From the NCBI GenBank assembly GCA_964016885.1, contig OZ024743.1, positions 313,534,001 to 313,598,000 on the forward strand: a stretch of 64,000 nucleotides of DNA. The letters run 5' to 3'. The stretch is from Eledone cirrhosa. Taxonomy: Eukaryota. Positions 3,430-62,491 of the stretch are shown one piece after another. The position numbers and the translations under genes are program-made. The notes under the pieces were generated by a model. The model saw only the letters and a list, made by a program, of their open reading frames with translations, did not search any database and had not been told where the DNA came from. How positions within the stretch are numbered: the first letter of the stretch is position 1; every line of letters starts with the position of its first letter.

Positions 3430-3836
3430 ATATATAAAGTTATAAATATAAACTATCGCCGTATTTTGACTAAAGAAATTAAAGAAATGATTTAGCCTGA
3501 TAGTGGGGTTAACTTATAATACGGTGATAGCTTATATTTACAATTTCAAATTCGCTCGCTGTTTCGAAAATATTCTTACTTGACATTACAGTTGCTAAGA
3601 TTATAGCTTCTAATTTGAATGGAAGAAGACGGGTGATGTGTTGGTGTAATGGTAGCATAGTGGTCTGGATAACCAAAGATGTGGTTTCGACTCCCATGTA
3701 CGTCAATACTTATCTTTTTCCATTTCTCCGAGGGTTCTTAACCCCACTATCAGGCTAAATAATTTCTTTAATCAAAATACAGCGATAGCTTATATTTATA
3801 ATTTCAAACTCGCTCGCTGTTTCGAAAATATTCTTA
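3430..3836. mobile_element. (TA)n-embedded element: ~258-bp permuted monomer with direct repeat plus inverted 5' arm, containing a tRNA-like gene
   Basis: 3517-3578 is repeated at ~3775-3836; 3440-3511 is the reverse complement of ~3740-3800; same family as 58842-59062. Confidence 0.7.
3635..3705 (+). tRNA. tRNA-like cloverleaf (anticodon loop CTGGATA), probably an element-borne Pol III module or pseudo-tRNA
   Basis: Acceptor GATGTGT/GTACGTC, D arm GTGT-AATGGTA-GCAT, anticodon arm GTGGT-CTGGATA-ACCAA, T arm GTGGT-TTCGACT-CCCAT; TTTTT ~10 nt downstream. Many G-U pairs. Confidence 0.55.
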
Positions 3837-12329: not shown

Positions 12330-12442
12330 ATTACACATAAATGACTTTTATAGGACTCGAACTGATTCATTCGTATGGAATCATAAATATTTCATACGAA
12401 TGAAACAATTCTAGTCATGTAGAAATCATTTCTATGTATAAC
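12330..12442. repeat. Hairpin element, same family as 58379-58499 (3' half of a hammerhead: GAAA-caattctag-TC)
   Basis: cattcgtatg...catacgaatg axis; the right arm cgaatgaaacaattctagtcatgtagaa matches the reverse strand of 58381-58420. Confidence 0.6.
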
Positions 12443-12519: not shown

Positions 12520-12598
<79 letters not shown>

Positions 12599-12820
12599 TT
12601 CTTTATTAGTCACAAGGGAACAAAAGAAGGGGACAAATACAAATGGGGAGTTTACATACAGGTATATGAAAATAAAACTATTAATAAAATAACAAATAAC
12701 AATTGAAATCCCCAATAGGAGGGAGGCGTTACATAGGGGTTGCACACACCCCGAAAAAATGTACAACCCTCATCTCCAGGAGCACCAAGAGTGAGTACTC
12801 CCTTCCTCTTTTTCCTCAAC

Positions 12821-15800
12821 CTACAGGCTTATATAGAGAGAAGACCTAACCACTCGGGCTATCTTTGCCACATTCACCCACCTTTTATAAAATCTGCTGG
12901 GGTACAGCACCTCACTCTCCATCCTGATGCTTCTTCCAAAATGATATTTGAAAAAACGAATCAGCTGCTCGCCGGGGAGAAAGGTGTCTGACCTCAGCCC
13001 TTTTAACCTCGTCCACCATATAACCTCTTTCATCATAACCATAACACATAGGAAAACCGCCTCTCCCTCGTTTTTGAAGGAGGGTGGCGGTTTGATCATG
13101 AAAATGGATTCGGTGGTCAACTGGATTGGTCCCACTCGCGACAATAGTCGTTCTACATAGCCCCACAGGCCGGTAACGCCCAGGCAGTGTACAAATGCTT
13201 GCGCGACGGTTTCCTCGTCGCGCACGCATCTCGGACAGATCTTTTACGAAGGGTCCCTGCCCGGGCGCCTATGTCTGTAGAGCTTATCTCGAACTGGTAG
13301 AGCTCCTCGGTAGCACTTCCAGGCCAGGGACTTTTGGAAGTTTACCATTGGTCCCGGGCGGAAGGTCCTACCGAACAGACAGGTCAGTTCGTCCTCCTCT
13401 ACGCCTAGAGTTTCTCCGAGCGTGTCATCGCACTTGCTGCGGACCAACCCTCTATAGAATGTCGAAGTGGAGACTCCACTGATCACCGGATCCGTTTGCC
13501 AGAGGAATGTGAGCGCTTGAGCACATTCGATGTGCCAGTCACCCATTTTCCTCGGTCTTTGCTTGACCCAGGACTGCAGCTCGGTCAGCAAGACGAGTCG
13601 TGGGAAGGCTCGCCTCACGAAAGGGAGCCCACACCGGCTGTCCGGTGAGGAATACGTGGAGGTGCCGCAGCCTGAGCGCGTGTTTGCGCATCGTCAGCCA
13701 CAGCATCCCCAGCGCCCCGTTGGCCACAGATGGATCTTCTCACCAAAGGAGCCCATTTCTTCCAAAGGAATTGGAAAAGCGCGCGCTCCATTTTGGTGAG
13801 CTTTTTGGCTGGACAAGGCACGATGGTCAAGCGGTAGTAGATGACGGATGCTATAAAAGTGTTCGCCACCTCGGCTCGACCTTTCAAGGATAGTTTGCAC
13901 TCGGCCCCCGTCTGGGTGAGCGCAAACACCTTGACCGTTACCTCGTTCCAGTTCTTCTCCACCTGGAGGTCCTGACCAAACCAGACCCCGAGCAGCATTA
14001 CCGGTTTCCGTCCAGCGTCCGACGACGACATCGGAAGGCATCGGTGTGTCTCGCCATGTTCCGAGTTTCAAACCGACGGACTTGTCCCGATTCAGCTTCG
14101 CTCCTGTGAATCTTTCGTATTCCTCCAGTAAGGTGCCGACCTCCCCGATTTCCAAGGTGCTCGACACCATTACTGTCATGTCGTCGGCGTAGGCTGACGC
14201 TGCTTTTCGCAGTAGTGGCTCGAGAGTCAGTACGTACAGAAGGGAGGAGAGAGGGCATCCCTGTCGGATGGATCGCGTGATATGTAACGGATCCGAGATG
14301 TAGCCGTTCACCTTGACTCTTGAGCAATGTTGCTGCTGTGCATTGCAGCAATCCAGCCCCTGAACAAGGGTCCGAAGCCTGCCGCCTCGAGCACCGCATC
14401 CAGATAACGATGGTCAAACCTATCGAAAGCCCCTGACTAATCCAAGTTGAGCAGGGCCTCACCGAAGCCGGGTTTACACCCTACCCTCTCTATGATGCAT
14501 CGCATGAGGTGGAGGTTGTCGTGTATGGACCTGGTCGGGATTGCGCATGTCTGCGCTTCTCCTACCAGCCTCTTTGCCAACACCTTGGCCAAAATTTGTA
14601 ACTCTGTGTTTAGCAGAGTTATGGGCCGGAAGTTGCCTATGTCATCCCCCTTATTCTCGTCCTTCCTGACTAACGTTACTACGCCCTTGGTCACATAACT
14701 GCCAGTTGCAGTAGACCGCTTCCAGGAGACCGGAGAACATGTCCGGCATTGCTACATAAAATTCGTAGGGTAGACCGTTGAGGCCTGGAGATTTGCGTCT
14801 GCCGCATTGGCTCAGCGCGTCCCCTATCTCAGTGGCCGAAATCGGCCTTTCGCAGAACTTTGCCTCGCTCTACGAGAGTCGCGGTAGGCCGTCGAGGTAT
14901 GGACCGAAATTCATAGCCCCTCCCGGCGCGCCGCCCTGCCGGAACAGTTGAGCAAAGTGCCGCTGAAAGGCCACGCACATCTGCTTCGGCTCACGTATCA
15001 CGCGTCCGCCTTGGTCCTTCAAAGACCGAATCGTGGACTTGTTGCCACTCTTCGCCTCCGTCACACGGGCCCAGCTAACAGCTTTGGCTCCCTCGTTTCC
15101 CAGAGCACGTATTTTGCTTCTGACAACGCAGCCTTCATGCTTTGCGTCGAAGAACTGATCCAAGGCTGTTCTCGTCGCTAGCACGCTGGCTACGTTGCTA
15201 CTCCTAAGTGCCTCTTCTACTTTATCTACCAGTTCCTTTTCGGTTTTAGTTCTATCTAACACTAATTCTTTACTAAAACCTATCGAATCTAATCTAACTG
15301 CCCTCTTGAGAGAGTACCACCACATGTTGTTGACAATGGCGCCGGTCAAGTGCTGCTTAACTAAAATGCTAATCCGTCTCCTGTAGGCTTTGCATGTCGG
15401 TGACGACAAGTTCAGCTTCCAGTATCCGGGTCCCTGTCTATGGGCTTTGTCAAGGTTGACTAAGTAGGTCACTAATTTGTAATCTGAATAGGCAACCATG
15501 AACATTTGTGGACAGCTTAACATGTCCCTATCCTTCTTTCTAACTAGAACCCTATCTAGGTACGATCTAGATTTTCCGCTGAGATTAGTCCACGTCCACA
15601 GTGGCACAGTCGGAAAATCTAGTCGATAACTATCGGCCAAGTCAAATCGGCCGATTAACTGTTTGAGGCTGTTACACCACCCCTCTATCGGGACATGCTC
15701 CCACATAGTCCCAACGTGCATCTAGGATTCTATTCCAGTCCCCCACTAACAGCAGGGAGCGGGACGTTCCCAGAAAAGTTGCTAGACGTTTGAAGAAGTC

Positions 15801-16150
15801 TGGCCCCGGTGTCCCAGATGGGGCATATGTGGCCACCAGCCTGAACGCTCCACCTTCACTACCGCCAACGTCTAGGACCACCAGTCGACCCTCCGGGTCC
15901 AGATGTACCGTCTGTGTTACGAGGTCCAGGTGTTTCCGCAGCAAAACGGCAACCCCACCCTACCTCCCGGCTGACTGAGAGATGCGTAGATCTCAAAGTC
16001 GTCGAAGATGGGAGCCAGTTGTCGCTCACTGTGGATCCTGGACTCGCAAATTACTACTACATCCATACTGTGCGACCTGAGGTCGTTTAAGAGTTTGCCC
16101 TGTTTTCAGGGCATCCCCAGGCCGCGTACATTCACACATCCATCTCTTAT
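12821..16150 (-). pseudogene. Tx1 ORF2 (APE endonuclease-RT), frameshifted with deletions
   Basis: Split over ORFs 15672-15944, 14870-15721, 14437-14694, 13694-14311, 13615-14031, 13244-13618 and 12821-13225, each matching the 41621-44083 or 40930-41511 proteins. Confidence 0.9.
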
Positions 16151-16199
16151 ATTGGCCAAGTTGGTGCTGAAAAGTTAAAAGAAGAGGAAAAGAAATCAC

Positions 16200-17114
16200 T
16201 CACCTCTTCGTCTCCTGGGGACCAGGTTGCACAATTTCCATGGAGGTGTTGGGGGGGGTTGTTTGGTGGGGTGGTGGTCTCAGGTGGGATGTGGACGGAG
16301 ATGTTTGGTGGAGAGGGGGTGTCTGGTGGGATGGGGGTTTGACGCAGGGGTTACCTACGTCGTTATGAAATTTTTCTTTTAACTGTTTATGTGTGTCCAT
16401 GGAGGTCCTAATCATTTTAAGATTAGGATTCTCCGAAGAGTGTGTAAAGGTTTTCCCTTCGGTCTCCACCGAAGGGCTTTTATATATGGTGTCTGTTAAA
16501 GTTTTATCGTTAGTATTTATGTAGGTGTAACATTTTTGTTGTGTTGTGTTGCTTTTTGTCTGTGGTTCTTGTGTGTATTTACGTTTTGTAGTAGGTGTTT
16601 TGTTTTCAGGAGTGGGTGTTTTTGTTTGTGCTGTTTGCGTCGCTTGTCTTGCTGTTTGTGTATTTGTTGCATTTTTGTTTGTGTTATGTCTTTTCTTTTT
16701 TCTTTTTACTGGTCGGAAAGGCTCTCCCTCATCGTCACTGGGTGACGATGATGAAGCCTCATCTGTGTTGTTGGGGAGGGTTACATTTTGGGGAGCTGTT
16801 ATGTCTGTGGGTGTTTCTGGAGTTGTTTTAGGTGGGGAGGGCTTGGGTGTGACTGTGTTTGTCGTTTGTTTTGTTGTCACTATTTTTTTATGTTGTTGTT
16901 GTTGTTGTGGTGGTGGTAAATGTTGTGCTGATGTTGCAGGTGTTGGCAGTAGTGCCTTTTTGGGGCTAGTTAGCCGAGGACAGGAAGCTCTCAGGTGACC
17001 GCTGCTTAAGCAGTGGTAACATGAGGGCCGCCTACCCTCGACCGAAATGTTTATGTATATAAGCCCATCCAGCAGCACACGTTCCTGGATCCTAGCTATT
17101 CGTTCTGGTGTCAT
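16200..17114 (-). CDS. Tx1 ORF1 C-terminal part (CCHC zinc knuckle + Thr/Pro-rich region)
   Basis: VEGRRPSCYHCLSSGHLRASCP; homologous to 38832-40649. Confidence 0.8.
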   Translation of the reverse strand: MTPERIARIQERVLLDGLIYINISVEGRRPSCYHCLSSGHLRASCPRLTSPKKALLPTPATSAQHLPPPQQQQQHKKIVTTKQTTNTVTPKPSPPKTTPETPTDITAPQNVTLPNNTDEASSSSPSDDEGEPFRPVKRKKKRHNTNKNATNTQTARQATQTAQTKTPTPENKTPTTKRKYTQEPQTKSNTTQQKCYTYINTNDKTLTDTIYKSPSVETEGKTFTHSSENPNLKMIRTSMDTHKQLKEKFHNDVGNPCVKPPSHQTPPLHQTSPSTSHLRPPPHQTTPPNTSMEIVQPGPQETKR

Positions 17115-17940
17115 TTGGACCAGATCTTCCAGGCTAGTTCCGCTGAACAGGTCGCCGGAGGACTTACCTACCGATATTATATAGTCTTTTTCGAGGTTTA
17201 AAAATCCACATAGTACCCATCAAATATCAATATTTGGTGTGATACTTTGGATTTTTATTTTCTGTGTTCTTTTCCCCATGTAAGTGGGGAAAAAGGTGAA
17301 CAGCGGTGACACAATTTGCGACACAGAATATTTCTCTGCCGTCAATTGGTCTTTCATTAGAATGGATAAACTCCCGTAGAGCCTACCCTTCTGAATAAAA
17401 GCAATGTATTTATATATATATATAGAGAGAGAGAGATAGATAGATACATAGATAGATATAGTGTTGAACACTGTAAGAGGAAGTGAACAAAGTGATGTAG
17501 TTCCATAATTTTACGATCGTTTCAGCTTAGGAGACACGTAGTTGTAGGTTAGTCGACGATGTAAGCGTAAATCCATGTATCCAGCATCGAAATGTACGAG
17601 CTCTGTGAAGGCTTCTTTATGTATATATAAATATATAACATATTTAGTGGTTATGGTGTTGGGCGTAACATCCTGAGTTCCTCGTTTGATTTCTAGACAA
17701 AGTACTGTGTTTGTTTCCTTAATTATTTCCTTTTGCTCCAATCTCTGCAACTGAAAGACAATACTTTGAGACGTTTGAAAACACTGACAGCCAAATGGAT
17801 GACTCTTGGTATCCTCAATCACTCTGGTAGATTTTCGTCTGGAAGAGGCAAACGCATGGTCAGTCAATCTGTTGTACGTAGCCCATGACCAGTCATCTAT
17901 GAAGGTGACTCTTTGACACACACACAGACACACACACACG

Positions 17941-19469: not shown

Positions 19470-19542
19470 TATTAAAATAGCAGATTAAAGTTTAATCAAA
19501 GAATTGCTGCTTTCACCCTTAACGGGATCTTCTAAAACTATA

Positions 19543-19585
<43 letters not shown>

Positions 19586-19778
19586 ATAATAATAAATGTG
19601 AAGACTGAAAACCGAAGAGGGCTCGATAAGGAAACATATATGTCAAATATATAAAAACCATTGTGCAAATATTTATTAAAATAACAGATTAAAGTTTAAG
19701 CAAAGAATCATAACCGGATCTTCAGAAGATCCCGTTAAGGGTGAAAGCAACGATTTTTGCTTAAACTTTAGTCTGTTA

Positions 19779-19786
<8 letters not shown>
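19470..19786. repeat. (TA)n-embedded inverted-repeat element with hammerhead-like core (CAGAAGA-t.ccc-gttaa-ggg.t-GAAA)
   Basis: 19470-19535 is the reverse complement of 19722-19786; a third copy lies at 44528-44592. Confidence 0.6.
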
Positions 19787-20043: not shown

Positions 20044-20304
20044 ATATATACTGTAGTACAAGTTTGGTAAAAATATCCAAGGGTAAGAGCACTTAGTCCA
20101 TATGAATAGTTATAGCAGTGACATATGCAGTTACTTTCTAAAACTTCAAAAATATTTTAAGTGGAGTTAGACATATGTGTTTATATGGCAGGCTCAATGA
20201 GTTGGGCTGTTATAACCTAACGAAACTTAAGTACCTGTGCACAAATTATATATATACACTAATATATTAGAAATGTTTAAATCCAAGCATAGATTCGCTA
20301 AAAT

Positions 20305-20497
20305 AATAATTGTTTCTACTTTAGGCACAAGGCCAGCAATTACCCAGTGCATTACTGGTACTTTATTTTATCGACCCAGTAAGGATGAAAGGCAAAGTCA
20401 ACCTCGGCGGGATTTGAACTCAGATCGTAAAGGGACGTAACTATGGTGGAAAGCATGGCGTCCGACCCTCTACCGATACTGCCAATCCACCGCCCAT
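20305..20497 (-). mobile_element. tRNA-derived SINE (OK-like), well preserved
   Basis: Full A box, B box and body on the reverse strand. Confidence 0.9.
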
Positions 20498-20604
20498 TCG
20501 CTAAAATAATAATGATAGCTATCATCCATGTAGCGAATCTGTGTTTGAATTTCAACATTTCTATTTTCTCATTTGAAATCATACAAATGCCTCTATAAAT
20601 CATA

Positions 20605-20708
<104 letters not shown>

Positions 20709-20777
20709 AAAAAGAGATGAAATCGAAAATGCAACTGAAGTCTTATTTTTTTTAAAAATATATATATTTATTTGGTT

Positions 20778-20815
20778 CCTTTACCGGTTTCGCAGTTCTT
20801 CTGCTTTTCAAAAGG
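20778..20815 (-). ncRNA. Minimal type I hammerhead ribozyme, U3-A8 variant
   Basis: Reverse strand: cctt-TTGAAAA-gcag-aagaa-ctgc-GAAA-ccgg-TA-aagg. Confidence 0.85.
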
Positions 20816-20864
20816 TGAGTTTTTCTCACGTGAGAAAAAACCACAGACCCTCCATCTCAACTCA

Positions 20865-20902
20865 CCTTTTGAAAAGCAGAAGAACTGCGAAACCGGTAAA
20901 GG
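20865..20902 (+). ncRNA. Minimal type I hammerhead ribozyme, U3-A8 variant
   Basis: cctt-TTGAAAA-gcag-aagaa-ctgc-GAAA-ccgg-TA-aagg; G10.1-C11.1, palindromic stem III CCGG, GUA site. Confidence 0.85.
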
Positions 20903-21033
20903 AACCAAATAAATATATATATTTAAAAAAAAAATAAGACTTCAGTTGCATTTTCGATTTCATCTCTTTTTCTTTATACTTTCACTCGTGTAGGACACCT
21001 CGGTTATTTTTCATTTTGTAAAAAAAACCTCAC

Positions 21034-21093
<60 letters not shown>

Positions 21094-21096
<3 letters not shown>

Positions 21097-21458
21097 TGTA
21101 TATATATAATGTATTTTGCAATACACTGTATGCTTAATTGAAAGCATTTTGAAGACCATACGCCATTGTTTTAAAGTAACGACAATGTCGCTTACTTACA
21201 TTTTCAGCAAACAAGGGGAGACAAGCTGACAGAGCTCTGTTTCGTACGTTTTGGTACTTATCAAAGCTTACTACTCTCTCTGTTTGCTGAAAATTATGTG
21301 TGTTGGTACGAAACAGAGCTCTGTCAGCTTATCTCCCCTTGTTTGCTGAAAATTTAAGTAAGCGACATTGTCGCTACTTTAAAACAATGGCGTATGATCT
21401 TCAAAATGTTTTTAATTAAGCATACAGTGTATTGCAAAATACATTATATATACATTCA
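21094..21458. repeat. Palindromic element (~153-bp arms) between (TA)n tracts
   Basis: 21094-21247 is the reverse complement of 21306-21458 with few mismatches. Confidence 0.9.
21223..21269 (-). ncRNA. Type I hammerhead ribozyme, U3-A8 variant, GUC site
   Basis: Reverse strand: aagct-TTGATAA-gtac-caaaac-gtac-GAAA-cagagctctg-TC-agctt. Confidence 0.85.
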
Positions 21459-21491
21459 TATATATATCGCTATTTCAGAGCACCAATTCTA

Positions 21492-21525
<34 letters not shown>

Positions 21526-28061: not shown

Positions 28062-31000
28062 TTGCTCGAAATGAATACTGATAATAAAAGCAATTCAACT
28101 TTATCAAACAGTGAACTCCAGCGGCGACGGCGGGCAGCCAGCAATGAAGAAAAACGGGCCGAACAGCGCCATCGGAACGCCGAACCTCAGAGGCGAAGAC
28201 GTGCGGCCATGAATGAAGAGTTTAAAATACTAAGTATGTGGGTGGTGAAGGAGACCGAGGTAGATTACTGCGCAAATATTCGCGGCAAATTAACAATTCA
28301 TTAGCTTTAGCATCGCAGAGAGTTAGTGAGATGTTTGAGAGTGGAGCATGGCAACCGAATGTAGTCATTCAAGGCCGTTTGTATCATTGTATCGGTAATT
28401 TAGAAGTTGCCCCAGGAGAGAGGCCTCGATTCGCTCAAATTTACGTTAACGATCCAGATTATAGTGAATTGGAGGAGGATATCAGGATCGGTTGGATGAA
28501 GTTTCCGGGAAATATAACTGAATTGGAACGGCAAAGGTTAAGTGATTTGATCCGTTATTTACAATCATGGCTTAGACAGTGTAATCCTTATGTTATGGAT
28601 TTCATGTTGGTGGCTGAACTGCAAAATGTTCAGCAGCAAACATTGGTGATTAAGGCTGACGCCGTGCCAAGGAATCAACACGGACGGCGATAAAATGTCC
28701 CTGAAGGATTTCGTGAAGTTGCTGTGTTGATGGACGATAAGCCTGGGTCGAGAGATATCGTCCCCAATCGCAGAGATGGTGGTCTCAAGACTATCAATGA
28801 GTCAAATAGGGCATACGATCAATTGCATTATGTTCTTTTATTCCCAAAAGGTGAAAATGGATGGAACCTGTCTGTTCATTTAGATGATCATGAGAATCAA
28901 CATCAACAGGAAGGTGGCAATAGACACAATAATTCGATTCGCGACTTTTACGCGTTCCATTTGAACGAGAGGAATCAACAGAGAAATGCGCTATTTCAAG
29001 CCAGCAGATTGTTCCAGGAATACTGTTGTATGGCATTCGCAAAGATCGAAAATCAAAGGCTAAATTATATAGCTACACACCAGCAACATATCAAAGCTGA
29101 ATTGTATAATAATATACAGGATGCAATTACAAGCAAATTGGTCGACGCATTATTTTGCCATTGTCGTTCATCGGCGGCCCGAGATACAAGAACATTCGCT
29201 ATCAGGATGCAATGGCTATTGTCAGAAAATTTGGAAAGCCAGATGTGTTTATAACGGTTACATGCAACCATGAATGGACTGATATTAAAGATGCACTTTT
29301 GCCAGGACAACAGCCAACGGACCGTCCTGATATTGTGGCAAGAGTATTCAAAGGATATCTGAAAAAGATAATGGATGATGTGGAAAAAAAAGGAATCTTT
29401 GGAGGTATAGTTGCTTTTACATACGTAATTGAATTCCAAAAAAGAGGATTGCAACATGCACTTTGCTGATCATTTTACATAGAGATTGCAAATTGAGATG
29501 TGCTGAGGATGTCGACAGCATTGTGTGTGCTGAACTGCCGGAGAATGAGGCACTACGCAAATTGGTGGCAAAGTCAATGGTGCACAACCAATGCGGAGTG
29601 GCAAATCGGAAAGCGCCTTGCATGAAAAATGGCCAATGCAGTAAGCACTTTCCGAAATCTTTTGTCACGAACACTTCCTGGCACGATGGGGATGCTCATC
29701 CCTCATACAGAAGACGGTCGCATGCAGATGGCGGTTTGGTCGAAAATGTAAACGGTCGACAGGTTACAAATCAATTGGTTGTGCCATACAATCCATATTT
29801 GATTATGAAATATCGTTGTCATATTAATGTGGAAATTTGTAGCCCAGTCAAAGCTTGCAAATATCTATTCAAATATGTTTACAAAGGTCATGATCGGACA
29901 ATGATCAATGTCAGGAATGAGGAAGCGAACCAAGGAGATGGAGTTGGCAGGTTCCAGGATGTTCGCTCGATTGGATCTAGCGAAGCTTGCTGGAGATTGT
30001 TCGATTTTGATCTCAATGAACGCAAACTCAGCGTTCAGAAACTGACGGTTCACTGAAAGAATAGTCAAATGGTCTGTTTTCAGGACACTAGAAGAGGTGT
30101 CGAAAGAATTGCTAACGCACCACCTCCTAAGACGGAATTGACTAAGTAGTTCAGGCATAATAGGGAACATGCTTTGAACCCGGATCAAAGGCAACTCTAC
30201 TGCGATTTCCCTTCGCACTATACGTGGGATAAGCAGGGAAAGAAATGGAATTATAGAAAACAAATATTGAGATTCATGACTAATGGACGGGTTTGTAATG
30301 CCCATCCAGCACCTGGTGATGTGTTTTATCTCCGAATTCTGTTGCATAATGATTTTCGAGAGGTAAACAGAGCTTCGCTGATTTGAAAACAATCAATGGC
30401 GGGGAATATGAAATATACCAGGCTGTGTGTCAGCATCTGCGACTCCTTCAGGATGACGCTGAATGGAATAACGTCATGGAAGCTGCAGAAACAACACAGA
30501 TGCCAGCTCAAATGAGGCAGTTGTTTGTCACGATTCTAGGATTCTGCAATCCTGCCGATCCAAGAGAGTTATTTGAACGCCATTGGAGAATTATGGCTGA
30601 TGATTTTAGGCATAATCTTCAGGTCGATGATGAAAATTTGATGAAAGCTATTGTTTTGCTCAATATTGAGCAACTGCTTGAAGTTCATTTCAAATGTTTA
30701 AGAGATTTCAATTTGCCAATTCCTGATGAAGAAATGCGACAACGTGTCTTAGCATTGAACATGAGATTGCAGCTTAGACGGTTGCCTCTCGATCGAAGGG
30801 AACTATTCCAGTTTGATCCACTGGAACGGCAACGTATTGTGGATGAACGTATGGCAATGTTGACCCAATCTCAGAGAGAATTTTGTCGATGGCGTTCTCC
30901 ACTCGATTTCCACTAATGAGCAACTTTGTGCTTTCATAGATGCTCCAGGAGGCACCGGAAAGACATTCTGTTTCAACACTATGTTATCGGCAGTCAGAGC

Positions 31001-32238
31001 ATAGAGGAAGATTGCTCTCCCTTTGGCCACCAGTGGGGTCGTTGCCACTTTGCTGAATGGTGGAAGCACCTTCCACTCATGTTTCAAGGCTCCATTGGCT
31101 CCGGATGAGTTGAGTGTCTGTAACATTACAGGACAAAGTGAACTCGCGGGCCTTATACGCAATACGTCTCTGATTATTTAGGAAGAGGCTCCAATGGCAC
31201 ACAGATATTTGCTGGAGGCATTGGACAGAACTTTGAGAGATATCTGCGGTGGTGACCTGCCATTCGGTGGTAAGACTATCGTTCTTGGTGGCGATTTCAG
31301 ACAGGTGCTACCAATTGTAAGGAATGCTCAAAGAGCGCAAATTGTCGATGCATGTCTGAAAAAGTCCCCGTTGTGGCGCCATTTCAGAGTTTTGCGATTA
31401 CACAATAATATGCGACTTCGTATGTTCGGGCAAAACGTAGAGGCTGAGACATACGGCCGATGGTTGATGCAGTTGGGAAACGATGAATTGCCACACGTTG
31501 GTGATAATCAGACTGTAAGAATCCCAGACCATTTGGTCATGCCACTGGACCGCCAAGCATTGATTGACTGGGTGTTCCCTAATTTGAATGCTTTTTGGCA
31601 GAATATCTCCTGGATATGGGAACGCGTTATTCTAACTCATACGAATGCAACGGTCGATGAAATAAATTCACAAGTAGCCGGAATGTTTCCTGGAGAGGAA
31701 TGGTTGACCGTCAGTGCAGATGCAATGGAGCATAATCAGCAGAACAATATGGATGTTCCGACTGAGTATCTGAATTCACTTCAAATACCCGGATTTCCCC
31801 CCACATATTTTGAGGTAGAAAAATGGTATGCCGATTATATTGCTTAGAAATATCAATCATAAAATGGGTCATTGCAATGGTACCAGATTGATTGTTGAGA
31901 GATTGATTAACGGAAGAGTTTTAGAAGCTGAACTCCCAGGCAGAGAGGAATCGGTTCTCATTCCGAGGATCATGCTGAGACCAAGTGAAGATCTGCTGCC
32001 ATTCACTTGGCAAAGTAGACAGTTTCCCGTCAATTTGGCCTTCTCCATGACTGTCAACAAGGCACAGGGACCGACTTTCAAGCGAGTCGGTGTCTACCTG
32101 AATGATCCAGAATTCAGCCATGGGCAACTGTATGTTGTTGCATCTCCAGTGTGCGATCCTGATGGTATAACATTTGCAATTGATACCACTAACAGAGGAA
32201 CAACCCTGAATATTGTCTATAATGAAACTTTGTGCTGA
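28062..32238 (+). pseudogene. Helitron Rep/PIF1 helicase transposase, multiple frameshifts and stops
   Basis: Rep motifs GKPDVFITVTCN, YVIEFQKRGLQHA (HUH) and KYLFKYVYKG (Y2). Helicase motifs DAPGGTGKTF, GGDFRQVLP, QFPVNLAFSMTVNKAQG, FSHGQLYV. Confidence 0.95.
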
Positions 32239-33615: not shown

Positions 33616-34530
33616 ATGCATACACGGCATGGTAGTATCGGTAGAGCATTAGATCAAATAAGAATCCAGAGAATTTAGTTGAGTCACCTTTTCGTCGTTC
33701 TCTGTTACAATTCCGCTGCTGAGGTCGACATTGCTTTTAACCTGCCCAGTAGCCACTAAAATATTTAGAGCAACAACACCACGAAATATATAAGGAAAAT
33801 GAGGGCGAAATGTAGCTGGTTTATGAAAAATTGATAACAGTACACAGAGAATGCTGAAGATATTAACCGCTGGTAAGAAATATATCAGATATATACTCGA
33901 ACATTCAATAGCATTCCCACCCAGCCCCAATATCCAAAGTGCTCACAAGCCCATTTAATTCGGAGAAATCTTAATTCTAGGCGGTATTCTTACATTACGT
34001 AGTTGGTGATTTAGCACCTGTGAGTGTGTGGGGTGGGAGCCGTTTGATTAGCGTATGTGGTTTGGTTATTTTATAAGTAAATGTTTGCTTTTAGTTATGC
34101 GTATTTATATAATTACGTACCCAATGAGAATGATTAATAAAGCTGAGTTAGATGGATCTCTGTTCAATTCGTATGCAAGGAATACTTTCAAATCGAGTAG
34201 TTTACTGGGTCCTTAACGGAGTCGGTCGTTTGCTCGTTTACAGAGGATAGATTGCATTCAATGTGCAGTGACATCTTCTTGTTGGTTAGGCTTAATAACC
34301 ACCCAACAGACCTCTTGGTAACCAGACCTTCATTCCTTCACAAAATTACTAGCCCTATAGTCACTGACACAGGTTTGCAGCTACAATAAAATAAAAAAGA
34401 AAACGATCGGACCAAGGAAACAGTGGTTCTATTCGTCTTCCTATATGTATACTACCTTCAGACTGCAACACCTGCCAATAATATATAATACTGGAATTGT
34501 ATAATCAAGACCGTAGCAGTATGTCATATT

Positions 34531-34588
34531 TTATATGATGAAGACGTACTGAAAAAACAACACTGTACCTTTGAAATATATATAATAA
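34531..34588 (+). ncRNA. Degenerate type I hammerhead (C3 to A)
   Basis: ttat-ATGATGA-agacgtac..gtaccttt-GAAA-tatata-TA-ataa, abutting (TA)n. Confidence 0.55.
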
Positions 34589-34607
34589 TTTGTTAATATT
34601 TTGAATA

Positions 34608-34977: not shown

Positions 34978-36352
34978 ATATAGAATTCACAAGAATCAAA
35001 GCTGTGTTCAAAGCATTTATTCACTTATAATTGTTTCATCCAAACCTAGGCTTGGGGACTTCGGAGCATTTTTCAATGTTTGTACACATGATTGACCTCC
35101 TTTCTAACGCAAGAGACGTACATATACATATGTATATATTGATGTACAGTGGAGTGACATATATTATATTATATTTCTGTATAGCAATTCAAATTCAAAA
35201 TCAAAATCACATTAAAACAAAATCAAAGCAAAATTAAAATACAATCAGCAGTTAACATAGATAATGCAAGAGGATAGTTTGTTAGTCAGATGTAGTAGTT
35301 ATTTTAGTTATTTTATGCGTTAGTTACACGTGGGGCATGCACGTGTGTCTCATTTATATATGATTATTGTGCGGCAGGCTGTTAGATGTAATAGAAGCAC
35401 TTAAAGCGGGTAAGTAAGAGTATTATGGAGGTTGTAGTGGTAAGGTATTTTTTGTATATGATACAGAAGTATGCGTGCAGAAAAATAGTATAAAGGAGAA
35501 GCAAAAGAAAATTATGGTTTTTGTATCCACAACTATTTTCACATTCAAGAAACGTAATATATAGTTTATACATCCTTCACATAATTAACGATGATTTCGC
35601 ATTGGATGCTTGATGTATTAATTAAATCATTTTAGCTTGCTGCGGCTCAGTGTTCTTTAATCCAATTTTATAGAGCAGGTTGTTACTGTTGCGAGAATTT
35701 ACATCGGTTTATTATCCGGAAGTATGTGTGTGATTAAGGGGAGTTAATGCGTAAGGGGAGGTAACTAGCTGATTTCTATAACTAAATTTATTATTCCAAC
35801 ATACAATATAAGGTGTCTCAATTGAGTCCCTTATACAGACGGTAATATATTCAGTTTCCAATTTCAAGTATCCTATTTTTAATTACAGTCTACTCTATCA
35901 TGAAGTACTAAAGGTATCTATATTAGGTGCTTCTATTACATGTAACACCCTGCCGCACAATAATCATATATAAATGAGACACATGTGCATGCTCCACGTG
36001 TAACTAACGCATAAAATAACTAAAATAACTACTACATCTGACTAACAAACTATCCTCTTGCATTATCTATGTTAACTGCCGATTGTATTTTAATTTTGCT
36101 TTGATTTTGTTTTAATGTGATTTTGATTTTGAATTTGAATTGCTATACAGAAATATAATATAGTATATGTCACTCCACTGTAAATCAATATATACATATG
36201 TATCTGTATGTCTCTTGCGTTGGAAAGGAGGTCAATCATGTGTACAAACATTGAAAAATGCTCCGAATTCCCCAAGCCTAGATTTGGATGAAACAATTGT
36301 AAGTGAATAAATGCTTTGAACACAGCTTTGATTCTTGTGAATTCTATATATA
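34978..36352 (-). mobile_element. 5'-truncated Penelope-like element with inverted pseudo-LTR (~400-bp arms)
   Basis: 34978-35377 is the reverse complement of 35950-36350. The spacer on the - strand has decayed GIY-YIG-like residues (..IKEH.., LE..I). Each arm has a hammerhead-like TTGAAAA..GAAA-caatt(g/a)-TA motif (35021-35080 -, 36247-36305 +). Confidence 0.7.
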
Positions 36353-38210: not shown

Positions 38211-38831
38211 AATTTTGAAGTCAGAGAGCAGACAGCCGGCCTGGTTCACACGCGTTGTTCTCGCCAACGTTGTAATAATTCGCCATCATACACATCAGAC
38301 ATATGCTCGTATCTTGACTACCTTACGGGTATATTATTGGAATTTCAAAGAATATAATGTATTTTATTTTAATATAAAAGTCAATAATTTTAAAAGGAAA
38401 ACATCTTTAAAATGTTTTTGCTTTCAGTTTATTAAATATTTAAGTCAATTATTTGTTTAGTTTGATTTACTATCCAAGAAAAACTCAAATACAAATAATG
38501 GCGAGGAATATTTAAATATTTTGTTATATCCGATTTTTATAGAACACATATATCAACTATAATATCTATATATATATTATAGTTGATATAAGTGCTCTCT
38601 CTCTCTCTCTCTCTCTCTTTCTATATCTATCCATCTATCTATCTATCTATCTATCTTGATAGAGTAAGACACGCTTCACATCGGCTCCGCTATTCCATCG
38701 GGATTTACCCTTACTATTGTAAGTACAGGATAAATTTTTCAGTGCAACACATTTGGAACACTAACCCCTGTTATTTAGGGAAACATTTTTGCATTTACCC
38801 CCTTTTTAGGGGGTAAAATAAATATCTAATT

Positions 38832-40649
38832 TTGCCGAAAAATTTCGTTCTTGGCAGCATGGCGGAAAAGATGGCAGACATGTCTGCCATTAGCTCTGCC
38901 ACGCCCCCCAAGTCTGAAGAACAAAAAATAATTACAACAAAATTAGACAACGAAACAAACAAAGAAAATGAAAAAACAAATGTTAAGGAAAATGAGCAAA
39001 CGGAAAACAAACAAACAGAAAATAATACAAATAACAACAGGGCAACTTTCGCCCAGAAAACAAAACAATCCATTACATACACACCAATTGACCTAACGGC
39101 CGCCAGAGAAAAACTGGCCGAAGCAAAGAAACACATTGTTTTGGGGGAAAACGGAATGTTTTCCATTAACTCCTCCCCAGAATTCAAGAAAGCGAGAACA
39201 GAGAACACAGTTCTCTTCAGAACAATCCTAAACCAAACAAGAAAGCCAGCACAGCCCAGCCAAATGGAGATAGAGTTGGTCCTAAAAGACTATATGAAGA
39301 ATATTCTCTTCATACGAAAGGACCGACTCTATGGCAGCATTTCGGTCCTAACAAAAGACAAGGAAACGGCGGAGAAGCTTTCCATAAGCCCACTCTCATC
39401 GACAACATACAGCTTCTATCCCTCCTACATGGGTAGAAGAACACAGAGAGTAAAAATACAAACAATGCTGCCCACAATGGACTTCTGGTGGGCTATTGCT
39501 GGCTTCATAGACATGGGCGAGGACACAGTGCTGTCAATGGGGAAGGCATCCGGAGATGCGTTCCTGGGAATGGGCCTCGACCTACTAGTCCAAATGAGGC
39601 CCGAAAGAATAGCACAAATCCTGGATCGCATCTGGCTGGATGAGCTCACCCCAATAGATATAATTGTAGAGGGGAGAAGACCAGCATGCTATTTATGCAC
39701 GGAAAGGGGACACATTAAGGCTAACTGCCCGAAACGTATCCCCCAAAAAGGACTATTGCCCACACCCACCACAAACAGTACACCAACACCACCCACCTCC
39801 AAAAATACACTAATACCACACACAGCAAACAAAATACAAACACCACCAAGCACAACACAAACATCACCACCACCAGCACCAACACAAACACCACCACCAC
39901 CATTACCAACCACAAGCACGACACAAACAGCACCACCACCACCACAAAACGCATTCCAAACAAATAATTAAAAAAACAGCAACAAATCTACCCCTCCCGC
40001 AAAAAAACAACAACCAGACACGACGTCCCTCCCACCTAGCGCTGAAGAGTTTCCCCCAACTTCTGAAGAAGAAGGAGGAGAAGCCTTCAGACAAGTTAAA
40101 AGAAAAAAAAGAAAGCACACACCCAGCACACCACAAATAACCCACACACAAACACCAACTCCAATAAAAAACACCCCACCCTCAACAAACAAAAATAAAT
40201 CTGCGCCTCCCCTCTCCGAAACATTGACAGCATCACAAAAAAAGACATTGCAATACACATATATAAATAAAGAAAACAAAAAACTGTTTAAATTAATAAA
40301 CAATAGCCCTTTGGTGCAGACCGAAGGGCCAAACTTTATCTCAACAGAGAACTTCACCCATTTAAAAATGATAAAGGTCCCTCTGGACCTTTATCGTTCC
40401 TTAAAAGAACAATTTAGACAGGACGTGAGCCCCCCCCCCTGTTTAAAACCGTTAAATCGCGTCCTCTTGAAAGATTTCCCCATGACCTCCCCTCTCCCTG
40501 ACACAACTCCAAACACCCCAACCCCACCACACTCGGGCACCCCCACACCACCGCAAAACATCCCTCCACCCAACACACCTGAAGCCATGGAAATTACACA
40601 GCCCAGAGAGGTAGGTGCTTTTCTTTCTTCACTTTCAACACCAAAATAG
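38832..40649 (+). CDS. Tx1 ORF1 (gag-like, CCHC knuckle), interrupted near 39970
   Basis: CYLCTERGHIKANC knuckle. The downstream ORF 40224-40649 is homologous to the C-terminus of copy A ORF1, implying a disruption in the A-rich linker. Confidence 0.85.
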
Positions 40650-40654
40650 ATCAA

Positions 40655-41511
40655 TTGAGAGTTGGCTGTTTGAACGCGCGTGGCCTGGGCTCAGCTTGGA
40701 AGCAAGCAAAGCTACTAAGTGACCTCAGGTCACGAAGTATAGATGTGATGGTTGTTTGCGAGAGTCGGATCAGCAGCGTGCGACAGCTGGCTCCCGCCTT
40801 CGATGACTTTGAGATGCACGCATCTCTCTGTCAACCCGGAGGCGGGGGGGGGGAGTTGCCGTACTGCTGGATAAACGTCTGGCTCTCGACGTACAGATTG
40901 TTCACTCGGACCCGGGGGGTCGATTACTGGTGCTGGACGTCGGAGGCGGTGAAGGCGGGGCTTTCAGACTGGTCGGTCTTTATGCCCCCTTCGGGGCTGA
41001 AAGAGCCGACTTCTTCCAGCGACTGGAGACTTTTCTAGGAACGTCGCGTTCCCTGCTTTTAGTGGGGGACTGGAATGGAATCCTAGATGCGCGTTGGGAC
41101 TATGCAGGGGCATGTCCCGATAGAGGGGGGTGTAGCAGCCTCAAGGGGTTACTCGATCGATTCGACCTGGTCGATAGATTTCGACTAGATTGTCCAACTG
41201 CGCCAACCTGGACCTGGGCAAACCGCAGTGGACAATCTAGATCGTACCTAGATAGGTTTTTGGTTAGGAGTAAGGATAGGGACGTATTTAGTTGTCCAGA
41301 ATTGATCATGGTTGGCTATTCAGATCACAAATTAGTGACCTGCGTGGTCAACCTTGATAGAACGCATAGACAGGGTCCCGGTTACTGGAAGATGAACTTG
41401 TCCTTGCCGGCAAAGAAAGATTACAGGAACCGGATTAGTGGCTTAGTTAAGATGCGGTTGACGGGAGCGATCGTCAACAGTAGGTGGTGGGTATCTAACG
41501 AGAGAGATTAG
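40655..41511 (+). pseudogene. Tx1 ORF2 APE endonuclease domain (frameshift in G-run ~40845)
   Basis: CLNARGL, VCES, LYAP, VGDWN, SYLDR, YSDH, GYWKMN motifs. Confidence 0.9.
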
Positions 41512-41620
41512 AGTAAGTTCGATAGGTTACAGTAAGGAACTAGCGGCGAATAGAAATAGGAAGGAAAGGGAGTTAACAGATAAACTAGAAGAGGCGATTA
41601 GGAGCGGAGACGTAGCCAGA

Positions 41621-44083
41621 GTGTTAGCGGCGAGAACGGCGTTGAGCCAGTTCTTTGACGCGAAGCACGAAGGCTGCGTTGTCCGAAGTAAAATACGTGC
41701 TTTAGGAAACGAGGGGACCAAAGCTGTTAGCTGGGCCCGCGTGACAGAAGCCAAGAGTGGGATTAAATCCACCATTCGGTCTTTGCGAGACCAGGATGGA
41801 CGGGTGATCCTTGAACCTGAGCGGATGTGCGAGGCCTTTCAAAGGCACTTTGCTCGACTGTTCGGAGGGGGCGGGGGGCCGGACGCGGATGTGGACTTCG
41901 GTCCATACCTCGACGGTCTACCGCGTCTTTCGAGCGGCGAAGCGGAGTGCTGCGAAAGGCCAATCACAGCCACTGAAATCGGGGAAGCGCTCAGCCAATG
42001 CAGCAGACGCAAATCTCCGGGTCTCGATGGTCTACCATACGAACTTTATTTAGCTATGCCGGTCTTGTTCTCCGAACTCCTCGAGGCTGTCTATTGCAAC
42101 TGGCAACAGAACGGGAGAATTCCCTGTTCTGTGACCAAGGGCGTGGTCACGCTAGTGAGGAAGGACGAGAGCAAGGGGGACGACTTAAGTAACTTTAGGC
42201 CCATAACTCTGCTGAATGCAGAGTTACAGATTTTGGCCAAGGTGTTGGCGAAGAGGTTGGCGCTTGTGGTGGGTGGTTTGGTGGGAGACGCGCAGACATG
42301 CGCTATCCCGTCCAGGTCCATTCACGACAACCTCCACCTCATGCGATACATCATAGAGAGGGTTGGCAACGAACCCGGCTTTGGTGGGGCCCTGATCAAC
42401 TTGGATCAATCTAAGGCGTTCGATAGGGTCCACCATGGTTACCTGGATGCGGTGCTAGCGGCGGCGGGCTTCGGACCCGTTTTCAGGGGCTGGATTTCTG
42501 CTATGCACAGTGGCAACATCTACTCTAGGATTAAAGTAAACGGCTACGTCTCGGAGCCGTTTCAAATCACCCGGTCCATCAGACAGGGGTGCCCCCTCTC
42601 CTCCCTTCTGTACGTATTGACTCTCGAGCCACTGCTGCGGAAGTTTGAGTTGCTGCGGGGCATACCCCTGGAACCGGGATTGCACAAAGCGGTCTCGGCC
42701 TATGCCGACGACATAACAGTAATGGTGGCGGACGCCTCGGAAATCGGGGCGATCGCCACCCTACTGGAGGAATACGAAAGGCTGACGGGGGCTAGGCTGA
42801 ACCGGGACAAGTCAGTCGGTTTGCAACTCGGAACGTGGAGGGGCAAACCGATGCCGTTAGACGGTGTAGTCGGGCGGTGGACGGAGGGCCCGGTGAAGCT
42901 GCTCGGGGTCTGGTTCGGACCGGACCTCCAGGTGGAGAAGAATTGGGGCGAGGTGACGAGCAGGGTGTTTGCGCTGACCCAGAAGTGGGCCAAGTGCAAA
43001 CTATCACTGAAAGGTCGGGTGGAGGTGACGAACGCTTACATAGCGTCCGTCATCTGCTACCGCCTGACCGGCGTGCCTTGCCCCAAGGAAAAGATCACCA
43101 TCATGGAACGCATGCTCTTCCAGTTCCTCTGGAAGAAGCGGCCTCCCATGGTGAGGAGATCCATCTGCTGCCAGCACCCTTCGAAAGGAGGGCTGGGTAT
43201 GCCGTGGCTGTTGATGCGTAGGCGCGCATTGAGGCTACGGCATCTACAGGTATTCCTCACCGGTCAGCCGGTGTGGGCCCTGTTTGTGAGGCGAGCCTTC
43301 CCACAGCTCGTCTCGCTCACCGAGCTGCAATCCTGGGTGAAGCAAAGACCGAGAAAACTGGGCAACTGGCACACCGAGTGTGCCCAGGCGCTCACGGCTA
43401 TCTGGCAAGCGGACCCGACTGTCAGTGGAGAATCCACCTCGACATTCTATAGAGGGCTGGTGGCTAGCAGGGGCGACGACACCCTTGGAGAGTCGCGAGG
43501 CATGGAGGAGGACGAACTGGCCAGACTGTTCGGTAGAACTTTCGGCCCGGGACCCATGGACAACTTCCAGAGGTCCCTAGCCTGGCAGTGTTACCGGGGG
43601 GCTCTGCCCGTTCGAGAAAAGCTCTACAGACACGGGCGCCCGGGCAGGGATCCAGCGAAAAAGATCTGTCCCAGATGCGTGCGCGACGAGGAAACCGTTG
43701 CGCATGCACTGGTACACTGCCCGGGCGTTGCCGATCTGTGGGGCTACGTCGAACGACTGCTGTCGCGTGTGGCGCCGATTCGATTAACCGCCGAGTCTGT
43801 GGTGAACATCAAGCCGCCGCCTCCCTTCAGAAACGAAGCAGAGGCGGTCTTTTTGTGCGTAATAGCCATGATGAAAGAGGTTGTGTGGTGGACGCGCCTG
43901 AAAGGTCTGAGGTCGGGTGACTTTCTCTCCGGCCATCACCTGGTTTACTTCTTCCGATACCACTTCGGAAGAAGGATCAGGATGGAGAGAGAAGTGCTTG
44001 GCCCCAGACAGTTTTATGAAAGGTGGGTGAAAGAAGCGAGAATGGCTCGTGTAAATGGGCCTTCTCTCTACATTGTTCTGTAG
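41621..44083 (+). CDS. Tx1 ORF2 reverse transcriptase + C-terminal zinc finger (820 aa open)
   Basis: KSPGLDGLP, RPITLLN, LDQSKAFDRV, RQGCPLS, AYADD, KLLGV, GGLG, CPRC..ETVAHALVHC. Confidence 0.97.
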   Translation: MLAARTALSQFFDAKHEGCVVRSKIRALGNEGTKAVSWARVTEAKSGIKSTIRSLRDQDGRVILEPERMCEAFQRHFARLFGGGGGPDADVDFGPYLDGLPRLSSGEAECCERPITATEIGEALSQCSRRKSPGLDGLPYELYLAMPVLFSELLEAVYCNWQQNGRIPCSVTKGVVTLVRKDESKGDDLSNFRPITLLNAELQILAKVLAKRLALVVGGLVGDAQTCAIPSRSIHDNLHLMRYIIERVGNEPGFGGALINLDQSKAFDRVHHGYLDAVLAAAGFGPVFRGWISAMHSGNIYSRIKVNGYVSEPFQITRSIRQGCPLSSLLYVLTLEPLLRKFELLRGIPLEPGLHKAVSAYADDITVMVADASEIGAIATLLEEYERLTGARLNRDKSVGLQLGTWRGKPMPLDGVVGRWTEGPVKLLGVWFGPDLQVEKNWGEVTSRVFALTQKWAKCKLSLKGRVEVTNAYIASVICYRLTGVPCPKEKITIMERMLFQFLWKKRPPMVRRSICCQHPSKGGLGMPWLLMRRRALRLRHLQVFLTGQPVWALFVRRAFPQLVSLTELQSWVKQRPRKLGNWHTECAQALTAIWQADPTVSGESTSTFYRGLVASRGDDTLGESRGMEEDELARLFGRTFGPGPMDNFQRSLAWQCYRGALPVREKLYRHGRPGRDPAKKICPRCVRDEETVAHALVHCPGVADLWGYVERLLSRVAPIRLTAESVVNIKPPPPFRNEAEAVFLCVIAMMKEVVWWTRLKGLRSGDFLSGHHLVYFFRYHFGRRIRMEREVLGPRQFYERWVKEARMARVNGPSLYIVL

Positions 44084-44314: not shown

Positions 44315-44355
<41 letters not shown>

Positions 44356-44479
44356 CTATATATATATACGATATTAAATTTTAATATCGTATATCTACTC
44401 CCAAAACTTGTCGAGTGCTTTATATCAGTTATAAAATATTTACTTGTTGTATCCCAACAATTTTAAATAGAACTTTTGC

Positions 44480-47202: not shown

Positions 47203-47292
47203 AATAAATTGTGTACCGATGCATCACTGATTCTTCATTTTCCATATTATGTATATATATATATATACACACACACAGATATATATATATAT

Positions 47293-47652
47293 ATTTTCCA
47301 TTTTGACGTTATAGTCACTTATATATTATTAAATACTGTTGGGTTGTCGTGTTTGAGCTCTATTGATGAACGGTTCCAAACGTGACCATCCACACAGAAA
47401 AGTTTCGTGAAATAGTATTTTTAAGACTATATAGAGCATTTGTAGTTTTTCCAAATTGAAGGATGAGTATTTAAGCTTTATTTTAATCTGAGTTAAGACT
47501 CTATTGGTTTTTCCCTGGATTTCACAGAATCTGTGGATAAAATCTCTGTCTTGATTTTTTTTTAATTGAGTTTGAATTATTTTCCCATATCCTACGTTAA
47601 TTATTTTCCATTTTGACGTTATAGTCACTTATATATTATGAAATACTGTTGG
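47293..47652 (+). mobile_element. Retrozyme-like element: 310-bp monomer with 50-bp terminal direct repeat in (TA)n
   Basis: attttccattttgacgttatagtcacttatatattat.aaatactgttgg at 47293 and 47603. Confidence 0.75.
47357..47437 (+). ncRNA. Type I hammerhead motif (U3 with G8)
   Basis: gctcta-TTGATGA-acgg...tcgt-GAAA-tagt-atttttaag-acta-TA-tagagc. Confidence 0.75.
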
Positions 47653-47705
47653 CTTCTTGCTCACAATAATTTCTATATTTTCATTTATATATATGTATAT
47701 ATATA

Positions 47706-47825
47706 TATAGGAAAAAGAAGTATGACCCCGACGGCAGAGCTCAAGCCATTTCGACGGCTATTTGAGTCCAGAAATAGCCGTCGAAACGGCTTGAGGTCTG
47801 CCGTCGGGGTCTGCTTTTTCCTATT
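47706..47825. repeat. GC-rich hairpin next to (TA)n
   Basis: gaccccgacggcagagctcaagccatttcgacggctattt-gagtccag-aaatagccgtcgaaacggcttgaggtctgccgtcggggtc; related to 2310-2410 (shared aagtattgagtact). Confidence 0.85.
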
Positions 47826-58706: not shown

Positions 58707-59062
<356 letters not shown>

Positions 59063-59342
59063 TATATATATATATACTGTGTAATGACCATATCATTCCA
59101 AAGATTTGGGCCAGCCTGAAGCTACATTAAATTACACTTGTCCTTGTCCAAGATATTATTCTTGTGGCTTAAACAGGGTCTATTGTGATTATAAATCTAA
59201 CTCCTTAAATGTTCGATTATGAGCGATGCCCTTTTTAACGTTCCTGTTAAAAAAGTCTTGCTTGCTTGTTAGTAAAGATTGAAAGACCTTTTATCAGAGA
59301 TCTGAGCGATTAGCGTTAACCCGTGTTTAAACAACAACGTAA

Positions 59343-61892: not shown

Positions 61893-62087
61893 TATCTCTA
61901 CTTATATATACACATATATATACACATATATACATATACACATATATACACATATACATACATATATATATATATATACATATACAAACACATATACACA
62001 TATATAGATATACACATATACACATAAAAATATATGTATATATACACACACACACACACATACACACATATATTTATATATATATAT

Positions 62088-62437: not shown

Positions 62438-62491
62438 TTACTCCAATAATTTGTTGAGTGCTTTATATCAGTTATAAAAATATTTTGCTTG

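Follow-up and report, generated by a model that had tools for sequence, protein, structure and literature searches.

The hairpin insertion and its two arms

Within the window, as the whole 64-kb stretch of DNA that was analysed is called here, positions 21094-21494 are occupied by an insertion that most likely consists of two head-to-head, 5′-truncated 3′ ends of one repeat family and a one-sided tail. The longer copy (21094-21305; sense on the minus strand) contains a complete hammerhead motif, is 5′-truncated around 21300-21305, has no tail, and abuts a (TA)n tract. The shorter copy (21306-21494; sense on the plus strand) is 5′-truncated inside stem II of the hammerhead and carries the tail at its end. 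The part of the ribozyme retained in this opposite arm (21306-21330, plus strand) is the 3′ half, i.e., the 3′ strand of stem II, GAAA, the palindrome, UC, and the 3′ strand of stem I, without the 5′ part of the core. The arm with the half ribozyme is, thus, the arm bearing the tail. The original prediction had the right arm begin at the GTAC of the 3′ strand of stem II, which is indeed where it starts. Its further statement that only the 3′ half of the ribozyme had been copied holds for the outcome; as to the process, the evidence favours two separately 5′-truncated ends.

The tail measures 35 nt (21460-21494, plus strand) and is made up of (AT)4 followed by 27 unique nucleotides. An (AT)27 tract (21040-21093) separates the insertion from a neighbouring hairpin element, and a (TA)14 tract (21495-21522) is present on the far side; (TA)n flanks both ends, and a target duplication is unreadable within TA. 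Ungapped comparison of 21086-21247 with 21306-21467 showed the arms to be 93 % complementary, while six substitutions and one 2-nt TA indel were seen when gaps were allowed. At four of the six differences the right arm has the letter that is commoner in the family, and the other two are outside the best 40 of 95 difference rows of the family comparison described below. Both arms share five letters that are not those of the family majority (21109, 21158, 21164, 21180, and 21190) and therefore descend from one source. The junction (21300-21309) repeats a 7-mer of 21251-21257, comprising a stem II strand and part of the loop; microhomology is only suggested by this, four of the seven letters belonging to the arm. 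An ATG in good context (21166-21164) was rejected, as the family letter at 21164 differs in ~99 % of the depth and the reading frame ends before 11 codons are passed.

The hammerhead motif

The hammerhead that had been predicted on the minus strand (21269-21223) proved correct to the letter, a separate type I motif with a U3-A8 core and a GUC site. As first parsed, the 5′ strand of stem I (21269-21265) is followed by the core U3 U4 G5 A6 U7 A8 A9 (UUGAUAA; 21264-21258), in which U3-A8 replaces C3-G8, and by a stem II of 4 bp (21257-21254 with 21247-21244) with G10.1-C11.1 and a 6-nt loop. GAAA (21243-21240), a 10-nt palindrome (21239-21230), UC (21229-21228), and the 3′ strand of stem I (21227-21223) complete the motif, all on the minus strand. 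Taken from A15.1 to U16.1 (21240-21229, minus strand), the palindrome is a perfect one of 12 nt, which would form a 4-bp hairpin in a monomer and a 12-bp duplex in a dimer. By hammerhead numbering on this parse, cleavage is predicted 3′ of C17 of the GUC, between 21228 and 21227 of the minus strand. The predicted cut site is located 134 nt from the tail-less end and, hence, near the 3′ end, as in the terminal repeats of EN+ Penelope-like elements (PLEs).

Stem I is longer than in the earlier parse: 7 bp are followed by an internal loop and a further 14 bp (21294-21281 with 21213-21200), the distal 5′ strand (21281-21294, minus strand) also being a direct repeat (D12). The fold of the extended stem I has a z score of −5.0 relative to 200 shuffles. 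As a consequence of this extension the RNA is ~95 nt long, the extended type I motif occupying 21200-21294 of the minus strand, and the 58-nt spacer between the arms is mostly explained. Everything a type I core requires is present, namely positions 3-9, G12 A13 A14 A15.1, U16.1 H17, and the 3-8 pair. Three helices (7+14, 4, and 4 bp) are able to form, with stem I open, although only as a dimer is this arrangement the predicted energy minimum.

The motif is unlikely to be a product of chance. C3-G8 or U3-A8 matches were obtained in 0 of 60 block-shuffled windows, and a second descriptor gave an exact-core match in 3 of 100 shuffles compared with three matches in the real window. The sole Rfam hammerhead hit was HH9 at 17.1 bits (gathering score 52; E value 0.35), and nowhere in the 64-kb window did a hammerhead reach gathering, a score that gauges likeness to curated families and not fold class. 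Rfam microRNA matches, all of them below gathering, were dismissed as explained by the hairpin. Exact-pattern scans of metagenome contigs, viral contigs, and prokaryote genomes, collections that are not eukaryotic, gave 0 matches.

A high-copy repeat family

Positions 21094-21310 (217 nt) were matched, at 80 % likeness, to four out of six public runs. All four contained the family, with 1,186 and 1,263 contigs from one sample and 2,542 and 2,043 RAD reads from two samples. The motif belongs to a high-copy repeat family, of which the 64-kb window holds a single copy. Among the 1,186 contigs, 45 are at least 99 % alike. The summed contig depth near the 3′ end exceeds that at the core by a factor of 13 to 15, as is expected for 5′-truncated retrocopies, a gradient that the RAD reads do not have and that concerns contig depth, which is no copy number.

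None of the best 40 of the 95 difference rows is located in 21257-21267 or 21223-21244, while the flanks and loop II vary. U3 and A8 are, therefore, the majority letters, a state found in all four runs; a small C3-G8 minority is possible among the other 55 rows. A family consensus of C3-G8 had been named in the original prediction as the outcome that would tell against it, and no variant of 21264 or 21259 was seen in the best 40 of the 95 rows. The stem II pair 21256/21245 is U-A in the window and C-G in a family variant that occurs in all four runs. The double change was counted at its two places in 170 of 1,050 and 170 of 1,024 reads in run X4 and in 125 of 826 and 129 of 822 in run X5, and the contigs gave matching counts at the two places (11 and 12 in one run, 15 and 15 in the other). 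This covariation concerns one pair and unphased counts, and may reflect a single inherited event. The C-G variant, which makes up 15-17 % of the raw reads, retains the pairing and abolishes the GTAC palindrome. A contig joint at 21213/21280 was set aside, as 14 letters, the stem I repeat, fit on either side of it.

The runs also delimit the family. Reads leaving the 3′ side in run X4 have a consensus that equals window positions 21469-21482 in 14 of 14 letters (346 reads, agreement 0.78); in run X5, the first eight letters of the loose-end consensus match, and the contigs match more weakly. Because the loose ends of the family match it, 21460-21494 belongs to the family as a tail, which only the right arm carries, and is not host flank; the element accordingly runs to ~21494. 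On the 5′ side, beyond 21298, 292 and 233 reads as well as 10 and 14 contigs run into a new shared consensus, which is not that of the inverted arm. The minus-strand copy is, thus, 5′-truncated, since the family continues beyond 21298 with other sequence. In one other locus, a strand switch was found at 21178/21197 (55 and 77 reads, one start each). The tail, the 5′ continuation, and this second inversion point indicate that the palindrome is not the unit of the family.

A DNA transposon of the MITE or foldback type that has terminal inverted repeats of 150 bp, entered at TA, and carries the hammerhead as a captured passenger would account for long terminal inverted arms of 96 % identity, TA on both sides, the lack of coding capacity, and a contig depth that is highest at the termini. 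Such an element should have fixed, symmetric terminal inverted repeats, whereas family sequence extends beyond the arm on one side only, in the form of the tail, the reads crossing the 5′ side of the hammerhead run into new family sequence, and another locus inverts elsewhere. With several unrelated families of the window showing the same one-sided extension, this origin is considered very improbable.

A single inserted copy might also have given rise to the hairpin at a later time, by folding back or by inverted duplication, for example through self-priming at GTAC. Self-priming at palindromes has been proposed (PMC3846280), the junction is located on the palindromic GTAC with TTG before it and repeats the 7-mer of 21251-21257, and the arms have in common five letters that are rare in the family. 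These letters are, however, equally well explained by one source gene or by a divergent population in the runs. Moreover, each arm holds family sequence that is missing from the other, the 5′ half of the ribozyme in one case and the tail in the other, so that neither arm, as it stands, is a plain copy of its partner. Formation by fold-back is, for these reasons, unlikely; it would in any case be a variant of how a PLE insertion is formed and not a different kind of element.

Predicted folding of monomer and dimer

In predictions that take no account of tertiary contacts or magnesium, stems I and III have a probability of 0 in the monomer and the hammerhead fold lies 5.5 kcal/mol above the minimum. 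The 5′ strand of stem I and the start of the core (21262-21268, minus strand) are captured by the palindrome in this predicted inactive form, pairing with 21239-21233. Unconstrained cofolding of two copies resulted in a double hammerhead as the predicted minimum, with a 12-bp intermolecular stem III (p 1.0), a stem I formed in trans (p 0.98), and a stem II that is intramolecular in each strand (p 0.97-0.98). For the 51-nt form, the cofold energy was −33.3 versus 2 × −11.9 kcal/mol, and for the 95-nt form −77.3 versus 2 × −34.3 kcal/mol. An internal loop is present in stem I. The hammerhead of the neighbouring hairpin is also predicted to cofold to a double form, while a C3-G8 motif at 62333 is not.

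It had been proposed that the self-complementary words in all three stems favour dimers. Dimer folding is predicted, but stem III alone drives it. The isolated duplexes have energies of −20.1 kcal/mol for the 12-nt stem III, −1.6 kcal/mol for GUAC, and −2.5 kcal/mol for AGCU, which leaves stem III as the only footing of the dimer idea. GTAC and AGCT find no support as dimer drivers, given these weak self-duplexes, the intramolecular nature of stem II, and the existence of a stem II variant that is not palindromic. As the monomer is predicted to misfold and the dimer to fold, cleavage at the GUC in the source element should need two copies or the protein of the element. In a transcript of the whole insertion, the antisense arm is made first, the arms are predicted to pair, and the hammerhead stems have a probability of 0. 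The ribozyme is masked in this fold, and unless transcripts arise from within the spacer, the locus at 21094-21494 is, therefore, probably silent.

A hammerhead that is decayed or fortuitous and lacks a catalytic role, even in the source element, would fit the Rfam score of 17.1 against 52 bits as well as the predicted monomer ensemble, in which the active fold lies 5.5 kcal/mol above the minimum and stems I and III are absent. PLE hammerheads have also been described as poor cleavers in vitro (PMC4209133), and the ribozyme was dispensable for insertion in one tested element (PMC11167929). On the other hand, matches were found in only 0 of 60 and 3 of 100 shuffles, the core letters are steady, and the stem II pair is compensatory. 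In addition, U3-A8 preserves the 3-8 pair and its activity in vitro has been reported (PMC3088659), and the catalytic topology is the predicted minimum of the unconstrained dimer. Decay of the motif is, accordingly, regarded as decidedly improbable.

A more far-reaching proposal is that the hammerhead of the family acts as a dimer-gated switch, the monomer being locked by the 7-bp helix between the 5′ strand of stem I and the palindrome and freed only by the 12-bp duplex with a second transcript; several unrelated families would then spread as ORF-less hairpin retroposons. This is quite unlikely. If it were true, cleavage would respond in trans to how abundant the RNA of the element is, over thousands of copies scattered in the genome. 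The inverted arm of the hairpin retroposons would silence their own ribozyme and supply editing or small-RNA pathways with long double-stranded RNA.

Probable affinity to Penelope-like elements

The best explanation for the insertion, with a probability of roughly 80 %, is that it is a coding-less stump of an endonuclease-bearing PLE, in its anatomy closest to the Hydra clade. Membership of the PLE class is likely. Two published marks of PLEs are present: an inverted 5′-truncated copy and a tail of 30-40 bp (here 35 nt) at one end only (PMC8557442). No GIY-YIG or PLE-type match was obtained for any of the 123 frames scanned among the 287 frames of at least 65 aa, and the coding remnants in the window are of LINE type and Helitron type. 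A direct-repeat pLTR (partial tandem) is absent at the locus, which speaks against a PLE without disqualifying it, such tandems being described as frequent in these elements and not as universal.

The proposed course of events starts from a high-copy family whose type I hammerhead motif, with its U3-A8 core, is located ~135 nt before the 3′ end. The RT/GIY-YIG protein of the family would cut (TA)n and use both sides of the cut to prime reverse transcription, the outer start site giving the arm with the tail and the inner site giving the tail-less arm. According to PMC11167929, the tail is the stretch between two RT start sites, and both DNA strands are cut and extended. Both cDNAs would have stopped early, one at ~21305 and the other inside stem II, and a head-to-head join at the self-complementary GTAC would have left one whole and one half ribozyme. 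Of the source RNA, single molecules are computed to misfold and two molecules to form a classical double hammerhead by way of the 12-bp stem III duplex, while a locus-wide transcript would pair arm with arm, so that the copy is probably a silent passenger.

The resemblance to the metazoan PLE hammerheads described by Cervera and De la Pena (2014; PMC4209133) includes the type I topology, U3-A8, G10.1-C11.1, a palindromic helix III/loop 3 interpreted as the site of dimerisation, dispersed solo copies, and opposite-strand hammerhead pairs 100-700 bp apart. U3-A8 cores are reported there in ~1,300 Schistosoma PLE motifs versus ~2,000 canonical ones, together with dimer dependence at low activity. 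Natural covariation to U3-A8 has been described elsewhere, where in vitro activity is cited (PMC3088659). Whereas the minimal motif of PMC4209133 has a bulged helix II of 7-8 bp, the one described here has only 4 bp in helix II and no bulged base, and a full 4-bp helix III is located within a 12-nt palindrome and combined with a long stem I with an internal loop.

With the Hydra-clade PLEs (Craig et al. 2021; PMC8557442), the family shares the (TA)n target (26 of 27 families), a hammerhead near the 3′ end (within ~0.1-0.4 kb in the clade), and a 4-bp stem III. One family of the clade is annotated with an inverted 5′-truncated copy, and one member comes from an octopus (PMC8557442). The core differs, being U3-A8 here and C3-G8 in 25 of the 25 hammerheads listed for the clade, of which 4 of 25 have ACAG/CUGU as stem III, as does the motif in the window. 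The clade is, furthermore, defined by protein features (RWK and DKT motifs, a CxCX5C linker, and an EN without CCHH; PMC8557442), whereas no ORF was found in the element. Of six words from the window searched for in the supplement of PMC8557442, five were absent and one matched an unrelated Naiad coding region.

Penelope of Adineta vaga and Poseidon of Anolis (PMC3846280, PMC11167929) resemble the insertion in their head-to-head copies, a tail of 31-40 nt on one arm, a palindrome at the inverted junction, and an AT-rich target; inverted pLTRs with junction palindromes are described in PMC3846280. The present locus differs from both in that neither an ORF nor a direct pLTR separates the arms, and in that both copies are shorter than 215 nt.

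Dimers and retrozymes are covered in PMC6765202, PMC7229834, and bioRxiv 2026.07.22.740005. The latter two describe non-LTR retrozymes, which are likewise short, non-coding, and high in copy number and have a type I hammerhead with a long stem I. A short non-autonomous hammerhead retroposon of this retrozyme-like or SINE-like kind, ORF-less and moved in trans by a PLE protein, with the hairpin forming at insertion, would agree with the lack of an ORF in or near the element and with the very many short copies. Animal retrozymes have been argued to derive from PLEs, to lack autonomy, and to exist as many dispersed monomers (bioRxiv 2026.07.22.740005). Non-LTR retrozymes are, however, defined by head-to-tail repeats (PMC7229834), tandems that give rise to circular RNA, while the copies here form an inverted, head-to-head pair in which only one ribozyme is complete. 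No head-to-tail array of hammerhead-bearing units was found at the locus. Among the joints listed, none goes back by a unit length apart from one 90-nt contig, and the family extends 5′ of 21094-21310. A non-autonomous origin is, thus, distinctly doubtful.

Hairpin and hammerhead are both of already described types, and nothing here is a new kind of system. Searches of the literature and of supplements, which do not reach into Repbase and Dfam, did not turn up a prior description of the family. It may already be listed by Lunse et al. in 2017, reportedly the principal work on PLE hammerheads that cleave as dimers.

For work on what PLE hammerheads do, the family offers a good test object, with its perfect palindrome, unusually long at 12 nt, and its predicted monomer off-fold. 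The natural stem II variant separates pairing from palindromy, and the many copies are suited to covariation analysis. The window also points to a single mechanism of insertion that scatters near-perfect hairpins of 100-400 bp through the genome, potential sources of double-stranded RNA that annotation can easily mistake for MITEs or microRNA precursors. Protein assistance of the hammerhead, and its dispensability for insertion in vitro, have been described in PMC11167929.

Neighbouring hairpins and other repeats in the window

The hairpin on the other side of (AT)27 (20706-21039) has a complete U3-A8 hammerhead in each arm (20869, plus strand; 20811, minus strand) and a one-sided extension of 66 nt. 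As had been predicted, the two elements are unrelated: the best local score between them was 22, from TA-like words only, and no cross match was found. The neighbour would be a member of another family that was inserted independently by the same mechanism. That two families share one TA tract and the same core variant is unsurprising: U3-A8 is a common published core in PLEs (PMC4209133), (TA)n is the prevailing Hydra-clade target (PMC8557442), and a third family in the window has C3-G8 (at 62333).

Of the 13 other inverted-repeat rows in the window, six border on TA at one end, at a distance of no more than 15 nt, and carry 66-106 nt extra at the other. The third hairpin family (62087-62500) has its C3-G8 motif at 62333 of the plus strand, a long stem II, and a one-sided extension of 66 nt; the hammerhead copy in its left arm has a change of U4 to C. 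A decayed relative of the 62333 motif, with A at position 3, is present at 34528-34592 and ends beside a TA tract. At 44340-44441, a mini-palindrome of ~30 nt is followed by a one-sided extension that is 88 % alike to 62427-62485. A hammerhead-like motif with U3 and G8, a 6-bp stem I, and a 4-bp stem III is located at 47363 (plus strand) within 47292-47655, between two 54-nt direct repeats that are 310 nt apart and just after a TA tract; this region is possibly a partial tandem or a retrozyme-like unit. Further TA-adjacent inverted repeats are found at 34983-36344, 58911-59062, 47724-47811, 12332-12438, 19472-19784, and 3440-3801; most of these six have a one-sided extension, and none gave a hammerhead match with the descriptors used.

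A tRNA-like sequence (Ser, anticodon GGA, 40.3 bits) at 3634-3706 (plus strand) is embedded in a further copy of the repeat found at 58905-59068. Two related LINE-type elements, at 38817-44083 (plus strand) and 12542-17219 (minus strand), are 77 % alike and both interrupted; each has a zinc knuckle ORF1, an AP endonuclease, and an RT. A fragmented Helitron-like Rep/PIF1 helicase coding region occupies 28226-31847 (plus strand). Finally, an abundant SINE-like repeat of 200 nt, which presumably resembles the tRNA-derived SINEs of octopus, is present at 20302-20532 and in about ten other places.
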